Virus record (IMG/VR): IMGVR_UViG_3300026224_000024
Reading direction: 5' to 3' (one strand)
DNA: 14,163 bases
From: a virus
Taxonomy: Duplodnaviria > Heunggongvirae > Uroviricota > Caudoviricetes
Shown here: positions 5,211 through 12,926 of the stretch, piece by piece
How positions within the stretch are numbered: position 1 is the first letter of the stretch
Layout of the letters: each line of letters starts with the position of its first letter
Program-made: the position numbers and the translations under genes
Notes under the pieces: model-generated
What the model was told of the DNA's origin: nothing
Databases searched by the model: none
What the model saw: the letters and a program-made list of their open reading frames with translations, nothing else

Positions 5211-5633
5211 TCAATGCACTACGACAGAATCACCGGACGACCCACCACCGCTGAAATGTGCTTTCCGGTAAACGGCCTGGACTGCATCATCATGCGCATC
5301 AATTGCCGTACTCAACGCTTCCTGCGCCGCCAGTAATGCACGGCGTTCCAGGGTATCGAAGATGCAGAGTCGGTGACGCAGCTCGCGCGGAAGAATTGCC
5401 AGAACCGCAGGGATCAGTGTCTGAATTTTTTCCCTTTGCGCTTTCGTTTCACCTTTTAACCAACGGTGATAGATGTTCTGCTGATTATTCCAGTCCTTGC
5501 CTGGTACCAGGGGCAATTCGCCGCCCCCCTGGCGCAGATATTCTTCAGTAATTGCATTGGCTACCCATGCCTGCCCTTTTTCAGCGGCCAGGGCTAACAG
5601 CACTGATTCGATGTGCTCATGCCTGATTTTCAT
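5211..5633 (-). CDS. ydaT: YdaT-like protein (toxic partner of the RacR-controlled ydaS-ydaT operon)
   Basis: 140-aa ORF with an ATG at 5633 preceded by AGGAG. Overlaps the ydaS 3' end by 17 nt. Length and position match Rac ydaT. Confidence 0.8.
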   Translation of the reverse strand: MKIRHEHIESVLLALAAEKGQAWVANAITEEYLRQGGGELPLVPGKDWNNQQNIYHRWLKGETKAQREKIQTLIPAVLAILPRELRHRLCIFDTLERRALLAAQEALSTAIDAHDDAVQAVYRKAHFSGGGSSGDSVVVH

Positions 5634-5892
5634 GAATCAACTCCTGTGCATTTTGTGTGTTAGCCTTACATCCAACAGGTAAACCATCGGTCGGATTCGG
5701 GTAGATATCAGGCCGGAGTTCATGAGGTGTAACCTCGAAATTCGTAGCCTCTGCGATACGCAATACCTTTTCAGGGCTTAACTGACTACGTCCAGTAGCA
5801 ACGAGGCTAATCATTGATTGCGAACAACCAGCCAGCGCGGCCAAACAAGACTGTCGTACACGATTTTTTTTCAAATATTCATCTAATGTCAT
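5617..5892 (-). CDS. ydaS: YdaS-like Cro/HTH protein
   Basis: HTH-like segment QSCLAALAGCSQSMISLVATG. I prefer the ATG at 5892 (SD AAGGTGA, 6-nt spacer) over the first ATG at 5931, which has no SD. Divergent from racR. Confidence 0.7.
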   Translation of the reverse strand: MTLDEYLKKNRVRQSCLAALAGCSQSMISLVATGRSQLSPEKVLRIAEATNFEVTPHELRPDIYPNPTDGLPVGCKANTQNAQELIHENQA

Positions 5893-5996
5893 AAGGGTCA
5901 CCTTAGTAATATTCGCCAAAATATTAACCATACTAATTTAAATGATCAATACTTATATCAGTTTGAGATTATGAGCTGTGTTCATAAGATGGTGGT
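5893..5996. promoter_or_regulatory. Divergent racR / ydaS-ydaT control region with palindrome TAATATT-N6-AATATTA (5907-5926)
   Basis: 104-bp AT-rich intergenic region between divergent start codons. The palindrome is read directly. The TAATATT motif recurs at 6626-6632 upstream of ydaG. Confidence 0.5.
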
Positions 5997-6461
5997 ATGA
6001 GAAGAAAACGCGAAGAAATCGCATCGCCAGAAGCTACGCAGCGTCTACGCGGAATATGGGATGCAAAAAAAAGAGAGCTCAAATTGACTCAGGAGCTTGC
6101 TGCCGAGCTAATGGGCTTTGAGACGCAATCTACGGTTAGCCACTATCTCAACGGAAAGGCTCCACTTAACACTGATGCGGCATTAAAATTCGCAGTATTG
6201 CTAAGAGTTAAGCCTGAAGACTTGAGGCCTGATTTAGCTGATCTGATGAATTACGTCCGTTCATCTGGAACTTATGACGAAAGTTTCGAAGGCGAAGGGT
6301 GGCGGATGGTTAACAAGCAACAAGCTGATTTACTGGATCTTTTTGATATCCTCCCCGAATCAGAAAAAGCAAAACTAATCGAAAGGCTTAAAGGCCAGAA
6401 TGAACTCTACAAAGAAGCGTTTGAAAATATGCTGGCAGCTCAGAAACGCATGAAGAAATAG
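5997..6461 (+). CDS. racR: RacR-like XRE-family HTH repressor
   Basis: 154 aa with an N-terminal HTH (LTQELAAELMGFETQSTVSHYLNG) and a C-terminal coiled/dimerisation-like region. Divergent from ydaS-ydaT, as in Rac. Confidence 0.8.
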   Translation: MRRKREEIASPEATQRLRGIWDAKKRELKLTQELAAELMGFETQSTVSHYLNGKAPLNTDAALKFAVLLRVKPEDLRPDLADLMNYVRSSGTYDESFEGEGWRMVNKQQADLLDLFDILPESEKAKLIERLKGQNELYKEAFENMLAAQKRMKK

Positions 6462-6480
6462 CCCCCACTACCTCGTAACT

Positions 6481-6505
6481 AAACCGCCATCCCTGGCGGT
6501 TTTTT
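6481..6505 (+). terminator. Rho-independent terminator downstream of racR
   Basis: aaCCGCCAtcccTGGCGGtt stem-loop followed directly by a run of seven T residues. Confidence 0.75.
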
Positions 6506-6697
6506 TGTCCCCTGCGCCCCCATCGCCTTACTTTTTTATCAAAAAAAACACTAAAATTTTCATTAGGATAGTACATTTTTATCAACAAAATGCATATTTA
6601 TGTTGATCATCAATATGAATATAACTAATATTATTGCAGAAGCAGCACGGCGCTGTAGGTTTTAGTTCCGCCACCCGGCGTTAAGGGGAGAGATAAG

Positions 6698-6832
6698 ATG
6701 GTGCATTACGAAGTAGTTCAGTATTTGATGGATTGTTGCGGTATCACTTACAACCAGGCTGTGCAGGCTTTACGCAGCAACGACTGGGATCTCTGGCAGG
6801 CAGAAGCCTCTATCCGCAACAACAAAATGTGA
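6698..6832 (+). CDS. ydaG: Small protein, YdaG-like (44 aa)
   Basis: Not in the ORF track (below its size cut-off). AAGGGGAGAG Shine-Dalgarno 7 nt before the ATG. Translates to MVHYEVVQYLMDCCGITYNQAVQALRSNDWDLWQAEASIRNNKM. Size and position match recalled Rac ydaG. Confidence 0.6.
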   Translation: MVHYEVVQYLMDCCGITYNQAVQALRSNDWDLWQAEASIRNNKM

Positions 6833-6842
6833 GGTGCGAAAA

Positions 6843-6995
6843 ATGCAAAAAATCGACCTCGGCAATAACGAATCCCAGGTGTGCGGCGTGTTCCCCAACC
6901 AGGATGGAACGTTCACCGCCATGACTTATACCAAAAGCAAAACATTTAAAACAGAAACAGGCGCACGTCGCTGGCTTGCCAGAAATACTTGCTAA
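6843..6995 (+). CDS. ydaF: Small protein, YdaF-like (50 aa)
   Basis: GAGGTG Shine-Dalgarno before the ATG at 6843. Translates to MQKIDLGNNESQVCGVFPNQDGTFTAMTYTKSKTFKTETGARRWLARNTC. Follows ydaG by 10 nt. Confidence 0.6.
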   Translation: MQKIDLGNNESQVCGVFPNQDGTFTAMTYTKSKTFKTETGARRWLARNTC

Positions 6996-12223: not shown

Positions 12224-12430
12224 ATGACAAAAACTTTGAGATATGACGATGTTAAACCATGTCCGTTTTGTGGTTGTCCATCAGTAACGGTGAAAGACAT
12301 TTCAGGATATTACCGGGCAAAATGCAACGGATGCGAATCCCGAACTGGCTATGGTGGAAGTGAAAAAGAAGCGCTCGAAAGATGGAATAAACGAACCACT
12401 GAAAATATTAATGGAGGCGTTCATGTATAA
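12224..12430 (+). CDS. ralR: Restriction alleviation protein Lar/RalR (anti type I restriction)
   Basis: Start chosen at the ATG 12224; begins MTKTLRYDDVKPCPFCGCPSVTVKDISGYYRAKCNGCESRTGYGGSEKEALERWNKR with a CxxC ... CxxC zinc ribbon. Matches recalled Rac Lar. Confidence 0.8.
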   Translation: MTKTLRYDDVKPCPFCGCPSVTVKDISGYYRAKCNGCESRTGYGGSEKEALERWNKRTTENINGGVHV

Positions 12431-12611
12431 AATTACCGCTACAATTGAAAAGGAAGGTGGCACTCCTACTAACTGGACAAGATATTCAAAATCTAAACTA
12501 ACGAAATCAGAATGCGAAAAAATGCTCTCAGGTAAAAAAGAAGCAGGCGTTTCCAGAGAGCAGAAAGTAAAACTGATAAATTTTAATTGCGAGAAACTTC
12601 AGTCCTCGTGA
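12423..12611 (+). CDS. ydaC: YdaC-like small protein
   Basis: ATG at 12423 with a GGAGG SD, overlapping the ralR 3' end. 62 aa. Position between ralR and xis, as in Rac. Confidence 0.6.
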   Translation: MYKITATIEKEGGTPTNWTRYSKSKLTKSECEKMLSGKKEAGVSREQKVKLINFNCEKLQSS

Positions 12612-12643
12612 ATTGCATTGTATTCAAATTAAAACTTCATAGC

Positions 12644-12659
12644 TGATTATTAATAATCA
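12644..12659. promoter_or_regulatory. Perfect 16-bp palindrome TGATTATTAATAATCA upstream of xis
   Basis: Read directly; about 50 bp upstream of the xis start. Candidate operator or promoter element for xis-int. Confidence 0.35.
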
Positions 12660-12710
12660 ACATCAGGCGTCAATTTCAGTCTAACATTGGCGCCTGCCAG
12701 AGGTGATGCG

Positions 12711-12926
12711 ATGGAACAAGTAATCTTTAATGAAGAGTGGATGGTTGAATACGGCCTGATGCTTCGCACTGGTCTGGGGGCCAGACAAATTGAAGCATAC
12801 CGCCAGAACTGTTGGGTGGAGGGCTTCCACTTCAAACGAGTATCTCCTTTAGGTAAGCCAGACAGCAAACGAGGGATTATCTGGTACAACTATCCAAAGA
12901 TAAATCAGTTTATCAAAGACTCATGA
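12711..12926 (+). CDS. xisR: Excisionase (Xis; YdaQ/XisR-like)
   Basis: ATG at 12711 with an AGGTGA SD. 71 aa beginning [32 protein letters not shown]. Directly upstream of int. Confidence 0.8.

Follow-up and report, generated by a model that had tools for sequence, protein, structure and literature searches.

A Rac-like prophage immunity region that differs from K-12 Rac and probably forms a lysis-lysogeny switch with lambda-style 17-bp operators

In Rac, a prophage carried by Escherichia coli K-12, the repressor RacR acts at operators of the form (T/A)TAGGC-N3-GCCTA(T/A), and a leaderless racR promoter has been reported (PMC9638921). The divergent promoter PydaST has been mapped and has the −10 hexamer TAATAT (PMC11879457). 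YdaT has been characterised as a CII-like tetramer that binds TTGATT-N6-AATCAA boxes (PMC9986795, PMC11879457), one of which was footprinted at the ydaT start codon (PMC11879457). The paaR2-ydaS-ydaT switch of CP-933P in E. coli O157:H7 shows lambda-like bistable behaviour, with PaaR2 repeats both in the intergenic region and at PL; its paaR2 mRNA was shown to be leaderless, and the same is cited for lambda cI (PMC8630535). For DicA of the Qin prophage, the operator Oc is the 20-bp sequence TTGTTAGTCATAACTAACAA (PMC3441716). Here we analyse the corresponding region, positions 5211-6461, of a 14,163-nucleotide Caudoviricetes sequence (IMG/VR record IMGVR_UViG_3300026224_000024; this whole stretch is called the window). 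We consider it probable that the region is the lysis-lysogeny switch of a Rac-like lambdoid prophage whose immunity cassette is unlike that of K-12 Rac and whose repressor acts on 17-bp lambda-style dyads.

The module belongs to the early region of a Rac-like prophage and lies in the orientation opposite to K-12. A helix-turn-helix (HTH) immunity repressor gene (5997-6461, plus strand, 154 residues) diverges from a Cro-like HTH gene of the YdaS family (5617-5892, minus strand, 91 residues; its start at 5892 is taken from the RefSeq annotation of the near-identical A41 locus) and from ydaT (5211-5633, minus strand, 140 residues), which encodes a CII-like regulator 95% identical to K-12 YdaT. 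Replication genes follow ydaT (PHROG replication initiator match), and the operon on the PL side carries kilR, recET, xis and int. The divergent repressor/Cro-like/YdaT module described by an earlier, sequence-only reading of this DNA is supported by our data, and the coordinates it gave for the genes, their overlap (exactly 17 nt, 5617-5633), the palindrome discussed below and a TAATATT copy were all correct when we re-read the sequence. Gene identities, non-membership of the RacR family, cassette boundaries, motif positions, conservation and co-variation were all computed.

K-12-type genomes align with the window by megablast over ydaT (to ~5644) and again from ~6662, and the cassette between these points (~5645-6662) has been replaced relative to K-12. 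The replaced unit consists of the Cro-like gene, the intergenic region, the repressor gene, its 3' terminator and ~200 bp upstream of ydaG; within the module only ydaT is shared. In lambdoid phages, the unit holding both operator regions defines immunity. That the unit from the Cro-like gene to PL is swapped whole is as expected if both operator regions are repressor-specific, and the comparison shows that Rac-like prophages exchange the OL-to-cro block as one immunity unit, like classic lambdoid phages.

The promoters of the module were assigned as follows. We infer a PR-like promoter for the Cro-like gene and ydaT at 5921-5949 on the minus strand (−35 TTGATC, 5949-5944; 17-nt spacer; −10 TAATAT, 5926-5921) and a PL-like promoter facing ydaG and ydaF at 6603-6631 on the plus strand (TTGATC, 6603-6608; 17-nt spacer; TAATAT, 6626-6631), each read from the sequence and each matching the consensus at 8/12 positions. 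PR occupies the position equivalent to the mapped K-12 promoter, and its hexamers are conserved in all homologs; the equivalents of PL are TTGACT, 17 nt, TAATAT in Rac-SA53 and TTGACA, 17 nt, TATAGT in K-12. A promoter scan placed a PRM-like repressor promoter at 5963-5990 on the plus strand (TTGAGA, 16-nt spacer, TAAGAT). In all homologs a −10-like hexamer stands 6-7 nt before the repressor ATG (6 nt in the window), and no conserved Shine-Dalgarno sequence precedes that ATG across them. Because the PRM −10 ends 6 nt before the ATG, a leaderless mRNA is implied, and the repressor is probably made from one. Transcripts from PR, PRM and PL are accordingly predicted to begin at ~5914 (minus strand), 5997 (plus strand) and ~6638 (plus strand), respectively.

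The aligned intergenic regions of the homologs share a 17-bp dyad, TAT(G/T)A(N)-N5-(N)T(C/A)ATA, with conserved ends and a variable centre. Four such sites stand out in the window: an OR1-like candidate, TATTAA-CCATA-CTAATT (5922-5938), that overlaps the PR −10; an OR3-like candidate, TATGAG-CTGTG-TTCATA (5970-5986), that lies over the PRM spacer and −10; an OL1-like candidate, TATGAA-TATAA-CTAATA (6614-6630), that overlaps the PL −10; and a moderate OL2-like candidate, TATCAA-CAAAA-TGCATA (6580-6596). A weight matrix trained on loci L011, L015 and Hafnia only, and scored over all 17-mers of the window, ranked exactly these four highest, in the order 6614, 5970, 5922 and 6580 (0.02, 0.03, 0.32 and 1.2 expected per shuffle, respectively). 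The simpler pattern TATKA-N7-TMATA occurs exactly at 5970 and 6614 (2 matches versus 0.06 expected, with 0/200 shuffles reaching 2) and with one mismatch at 5922. The OR1 and OR3 candidates are centred 67 and 19 bp, respectively, upstream of the repressor's inferred start, about the same distances as in lambda, where OR1 and OR3 are at about −66 and −19.

Stronger support comes from comparison between loci. Across 11 loci whose repressors are 52-100% identical, 17-mers occur at fixed offsets of ~ATG-75 (OR1) and ~ATG-27 (OR3) and over the PL −10, and their promoter-distal half-sites, which agree within each genome, change from one genome to the next. For example, Hafnia has TATGAA three times and L019 TATTCG three times, L017 has TATACG, TATGCG and TATGCG, and L016 has TATGTA, TATTCA and TATGTA. 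In the window, the distal half-site of OL1, TATGAA, matches the OR3 half-site, and the two co-vary within genomes. In 20,000 permutations the observed within-genome identity was never reached, whether whole half-sites or just positions 4-6 were compared. We also compared the window with its closest relatives in a same-immunity set of 21 sequences (the window, 6 complete genomes and 14 IMG/VR contigs). Here the varying columns fall on 1/30 of the unconstrained half-site positions versus 6/15 of the central positions (Fisher p=0.0035): substitutions in OR1 are confined to the central 5 bp, the OR3 half-sites are conserved around a variable central 5 bp, and the OL2 half-sites are invariant around a variable centre.

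Taken together, these sites suggest how the switch would work. The repressor, as a dimer or higher oligomer, would most likely bind the TAT(G/T)A(N)-N5-(N)T(C/A)ATA dyads. OR1 would cover the −10 of the promoter from which the replication genes are transcribed together with the Cro-like gene and the CII analog ydaT; OL1, perhaps with OL2, would cover the promoter driving ydaG, ydaF and the kilR/recET side; and OR3 would cover the repressor's own promoter, giving negative autoregulation. The Cro-like protein would be expected to compete at the repressor's operator region, and YdaT to bind its own box at 5623-5640. Since the same motif is present at PR/PRM (5922, 5970) and at a separate PL (6614, 6580), the earlier proposal that one repressor controls both operons is supported in its outcome, although the predicted control runs through operators other than the palindrome on which that proposal was based.

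Several points weigh against this interpretation. All of the operator assignments are computational, with actual binding and repression predicted from them, and the motif had been noticed before it was tested, so that the window-level pattern statistics are post hoc. The homologous loci are related by descent, and conserved −10 hexamers contribute some of the signal at OR1 and OL1. Between close relatives, half-site columns show no significant excess of conservation over ordinary flanking columns (p=0.45), and a score at the level of OL2 arises about once per shuffled window. The promoter scan (threshold 9/12) did not report PR or PL. GGTGG directly precedes the repressor ATG and is compatible with a leadered mRNA. 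Finally, lambda has an OR2, and we found no convincing counterpart in the intergenic region, including ~42 bp upstream of the repressor start. The best possibility, AATGAT-CAATA-CTTATA (5941-5957), is weak: it keeps 7/8 core positions but ranks 23rd by the matrix, where 19 are expected by chance, and is not conserved in L011, L015 or Hafnia; we therefore do not retain it. Likewise rejected were two candidates in Rac-SA53, the OL palindrome ATTTAGT-N5-ACTAAAT and the repeat ATAG-N5-CTAT, which are not conserved among SA53-type relatives.

An earlier proposal placed the operator elsewhere, at an inverted repeat between the divergent genes. The repeat is exact (TAATATT-CGCCAA-AATATTA, 5907-5926), and the TAATATT reported at 6626-6632 is also present; on this proposal the former would be the repressor's operator and the latter a second half-site controlling the ydaG operon. 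The repeat extends from the cro-side −10 to about +8, where a repressor could plausibly act, its 7-mer recurs at the PL −10, and a copy of the full pattern with three mismatches occurs at 6614-6633. The right arm (5920-5926) and the 6626-6632 copy coincide with the −10 hexamers of PR and PL, respectively. TAATAT is also the −10 of the K-12 ydaS promoter, despite its unrelated repressor (PMC11879457). The left arm, which falls at roughly +2 to +8 in the cro-side transcript, is TAATATT in only 2/21 same-immunity sequences, the window and IMG/VR contig L031, and reads TAATGCT (16), TAATGTT (2) or TAATGCC (1) in the others, including genomes with an identical repressor protein. Nowhere else in the intergenic region of the 21 sequences do seven variable columns follow one another as they do at 5911-5917, its most variable stretch. 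In Salmonella the spacer is 5 nt rather than 6, and in 11 homologs at greater distance only 1-4 of the 7 positions pair at the corresponding place.

Nor is the repeat unusual in number. In the window we counted 3 perfect 7+7 inverted repeats whose spacer is 6 nt (mononucleotide shuffles give 0.93) and 34 when any spacer of 0-12 nt is allowed. Allowing up to three mismatches, the palindrome pattern has 3 matches across the window versus 1.09 expected, which is not significant. TAATATT itself occurs 7 times versus 2.4 expected, a count inflated because TAATATTA is self-complementary and was counted on both strands; of its three copies in the regulatory regions, two are −10 hexamers (TAATAT). We conclude that the palindrome is probably fortuitous, a −10 hexamer joined to a lineage-specific coincidence, in which the left arm would have become a perfect mirror through base 5911, an A only in the window's lineage; the operator proposal for it seems to us highly improbable. 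With regard to L031 (IMGVR_UViG_2547132272_000010, 5804-5850), we note that its intergenic region and the compared OL segment are identical to the window, so that L031 may represent this very prophage or a sister of it.

We also asked whether 5907-5926 might be a weak auxiliary site, either a fourth repressor site at ATG-90 (5907-5923) or a site for YdaT or the Cro-like protein, strengthened by A5911. Several distant homologs (among them L016, L017 and L018) have a TAT-initiated 17-mer at ATG-90, and in L017 its left half (TATACG-AAAAA-TTAATA) equals that locus's own OR1 half-site. With A at 5911, 5907-5923 scores +2.0 by the matrix, compared with −2.7 (A41) or −1.4 (the common allele). In addition, the footprint of K-12 YdaT extends over the promoter and ribosome-binding site on the cro side, and the YdaT site at rcsA, TGAATT-N6-AATATA, has the same 6-N6-6 layout as the palindrome (PMC11879457). 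Nevertheless, the score of 1.96 ranks only 98th, with 76 such 17-mers expected per shuffled window, and 2 bp of the site would be shared with OR1. Relatives that have the same repressor and a near-identical YdaT do not conserve the segment, which matches the YdaT box at just 6/12 positions. A fourth site at ATG-90 thus scores at chance level in the window's family, although it is plausible in some of the distant homologs; for the window, we regard an auxiliary role of either kind as unlikely.

The repressor is not RacR, as it had been named in the sequence-only reading. It has no detectable similarity to K-12 RacR (BLASTP E=4.5) and is not matched by the NCBIfam RacR equivalog NF049929 (cut-off 200), which K-12 RacR matches at 244.6 bits. 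Over residues 12-82 it is instead similar to the N-terminal domain of lambda cI (phmmer E=2.5e-7 to 1.5e-6; 3kz3, 1lmb), and the Gln-Ser that opens the recognition helix is conserved between the two. The AlphaFold model (mean predicted local distance difference test score, pLDDT, 76) has helices at 11-25, 32-39, 44-51, 59-69, 73-76, 78-89, 107-118 and 121-153, and Foldseek returned lambda cI for all top 11 PDB matches, ten of which are structures of the N-terminal domain (template modelling score 0.72-0.82, root-mean-square deviation 1.4-3.7 Å). A Pfam search found HTH_3 and HTH_31 only and no S24 peptidase domain; where cI has its S24 domain, the model has the two C-terminal helices 107-118 and 121-153. 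Because an S24/LexA-type C-terminal domain is lacking, RecA-mediated cleavage is not expected. Residues 105-154 align to the DicA C terminus (positions 85-134 of NCBIfam DicA, NF007257), although only these residues align and the whole protein, at 35.8 bits against a cut-off of 101, does not belong to the DicA family. A C-terminal motif, LLxLFxxLPxSE(K/Q)...F..LL, is common to the window repressor, DicA and the O157:H7 type described below, and suggests a shared oligomerisation module among short lambdoid repressors without S24.

Compared with lambda, the region has the same divergent PR and PRM with a separate PL, 17-bp pseudo-symmetric candidate operators that start with TAT and lie over the PR and PL −10s and inside PRM, and a probably leaderless repressor mRNA, and the homologous N-terminal domain keeps the Gln and Ser of the recognition helix. 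It differs from lambda in the DicA-like tail that replaces an S24/LexA-type domain, in having no recognisable OR2, in filling the CII role with the unrelated YdaT family, and in half-site positions 4-6, which are GAA in the window and CAC in lambda. DicA and DicC of Qin likewise pair a short S24-less repressor, homologous over its C-terminal ~50 residues, with a facing Cro-like gene, but the N-terminal domain of DicA resembles P22 C2 in type (PMC3441716). We offer one further idea, for which the chances appear slim: that repressors combining a cI-type N-terminal domain with a DicA-type tail form an uncharacterised SOS-independent family in which half-site positions 4-6 (GAA, TCG, GCG, GTA) have drifted with the recognition helix and N-terminal arm across the Enterobacterales, and that in the window's lineage the G-to-A change at 5911 made an extra functional repressor or YdaT site over the cro-side transcript start. 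If true, such a family would be a natural series for studying the evolution of immunity specificity.

The closest characterised genome, and nearest named relative, is Escherichia phage Rac-SA53 (KU052037), which shares the layout, promoter hexamers and 17-bp site positions. Its 'dicA' is 70% identical to the window repressor and its 'dicC' 66% identical to the Cro-like protein, but its recognition helix reads QGTVSQ rather than QSTVSH, its half-sites are TATTGG, TATTTG and TATCCG, and its Cro-like gene encodes 82 residues and does not overlap ydaT. Because the half-sites differ, Rac-SA53 is probably heteroimmune to the window prophage. CP-933P, compared by description, resembles the window in its short HTH repressor without S24, its leaderless repressor mRNA, its divergent YdaS/YdaT genes and its repressor repeats in the intergenic region and at PL. 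It differs in its four 18-bp palindromic operators (half-site GTTTAGTAA) and in a paaA2-parE2 toxin-antitoxin pair in the PaaR2 operon. No such pair is present in the window's repressor operon, as an intrinsic terminator (6481-6508, plus strand; 9-bp stem and T-run) lies 3' of the repressor gene.

K-12 Rac shares with the window its prophage type, gene order, ydaT, the YdaT box at the ydaT start codon, the cro-side −10 TAATAT and the placement of repressor-specific boxes in the intergenic region and at the promoter downstream of the repressor gene. It differs in its unrelated repressor, its distant YdaS and its ydaS and ydaT genes, which do not overlap. In K-12-type Rac, RacR boxes number 3 in the intergenic region and 2 around the promoter downstream of racR (5 versus 0.12 expected). 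The latter two, TAGGCATAGCCTA and TAGGCATTACCTA (L002, 4438-4450 and 4463-4475), flank the TTGACA-17-TATAGT promoter that faces ydaG. RacR control of this leftward operon may be under-described, ydaG being unmentioned in the RacR papers searched. Neither regulatory region of the window has a RacR-box match, and the whole window has one match with up to two mismatches, inside the repressor coding sequence (3.8 expected by chance). The K-12 gene names racR and ydaS would mislead workers on a strain carrying the window repressor, and RacR operators, cross-talk data and essentiality results do not transfer to it. The operator coordinates given above are concrete and testable for the window's immunity type.

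The small HTH gene called ydaS in the sequence-only reading does diverge from the repressor, and its product scores 40.6 bits against Pfam YdaS_toxin (PF15943; gathering threshold 30), but it is only a distant relative of K-12 YdaS (42% identity over 50 residues) and matches the PDB 'antirepressor protein Cro' structures 8c7k and 8co2 (E ~1e-7). YdaT scores 42.5 bits against Pfam YdaT_toxin (PF06254; threshold 21), belongs to PHROG 163, 'CII-like transcriptional activator', and matches PDB 8bt1 and 3c4r. A YdaT-box dyad, CTGATTTTCATGAATCAA, with one mismatch to TTGATT-N6-AATCAA, spans the ydaT start codon (5623-5640), just inside the left edge of the K-12 homology and at the place of the K-12 box. 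Both the family match and the box at the start codon are thus those of a CII equivalent.

These assignments bear on the earlier suggestion that the module serves first of all as a toxin-repressor system, or as a toxin-antitoxin-like (abortive) one, in which the repressor would silence toxic YdaS and YdaT and would not serve a developmental switch. In K-12, racR is reported to be essential and could be deleted only when ydaS and the intergenic region were also removed, and ectopic ydaS/ydaT expression is lethal (PMC5700373, PMC5700377). Pfam names both families 'toxin', and the window's YdaT is nearly identical to the K-12 protein; for YdaT these data may carry over, while for the rest of the module the K-12 essentiality and toxicity results transfer by analogy only. 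The toxin reading has been contested by Jobling, who argued that YdaS and YdaT are Cro and CII analogs with a regulatory role (PMC5917428); YdaT has since been characterised as the CII equivalent, a DNA-binding tetramer with defined boxes (PMC9986795, PMC11879457), and CP-933P YdaT was reported to be non-toxic (PMC9638921). The window also has a complete lambdoid early region. Its replication genes after ydaT and its kilR, recET, xis and int on the PL side fit a developmental switch, and the Cro-like protein resembles solved Cro structures. The layout is contrary to that of a type II toxin-antitoxin system, as the repressor is divergently transcribed, by homology acts on DNA and lies in a phage early context. 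A further point concerns two independent records, L006 (ETEC6335, 1005-1468) and IMG/VR L026, in which the repressor gene is frameshifted in an A8-to-A7 run (stop at codon 29), whereas neither the cro-like gene nor ydaT is disrupted. Either the homopolymer was misread in sequencing or these are natural repressor-null lysogens; if the frameshifts are real, they bear on the claimed essentiality of the repressor and speak against strict essentiality. We consider a primarily toxin-antitoxin function improbable for this module. The lysis-lysogeny switch that we favour is otherwise textbook phage-switch biology, and its repressor is a so far uncharacterised member of a well-known kind.

The intergenic type of the window is carried by ~56 of 5,426 complete E. 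coli genomes, and a metagenome scan for the intergenic pattern gave no matches. Homologs of the repressor, 52-88% identical, are encoded in Salmonella, Hafnia, Enterobacter, Serratia, Phytobacter and Dickeya, and at every sequenced homologous locus they are accompanied by a divergent YdaS-like gene and ydaT. E. coli O157:H7 strain ECP19-598 (L038, 2774-3598) represents a third immunity type among Rac-like prophages. Its 139-residue HTH repressor shares the C-terminal motif as LLELFNQLPxSEQ, and it shows the same architecture with repeats of its own, of ACACAA/TTGTGT type, in the intergenic region as well as upstream of the DUF1391 gene.

On the PL side, a ydaG-like gene (6698-6832, plus strand, 44 residues) comes first in the operon and is followed by ydaF (DUF1391; 6834-6995, plus strand). 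The ydaG-side leader (6640-6697) is conserved between prophages of different immunity types, and from ~6662 onwards K-12 has it too; it contains a small hairpin, CAGCACGGCGCTG. The folding stability of 6636-6700 is not unusual (z=0.66), and the leader has no Rfam match; one guess is that it is a nut-like or antitermination element. The only Rfam match in the window is the RalA antitoxin small RNA of the RalR/RalA type I system (12429-12607, minus strand; RF02694, 218 bits). Matches to the YdaT box with up to two mismatches number 6 in the whole window, versus 1.6 expected. One, the dyad CTGATTATTAATAATCAA at 12643-12660 (one mismatch to TTGATT-N6-AATCAA), lies ~50 nt upstream of an xis-like open reading frame (12712-12926), with int from 12985, and its place before xis and int recalls CII activation of the lambda int promoter.

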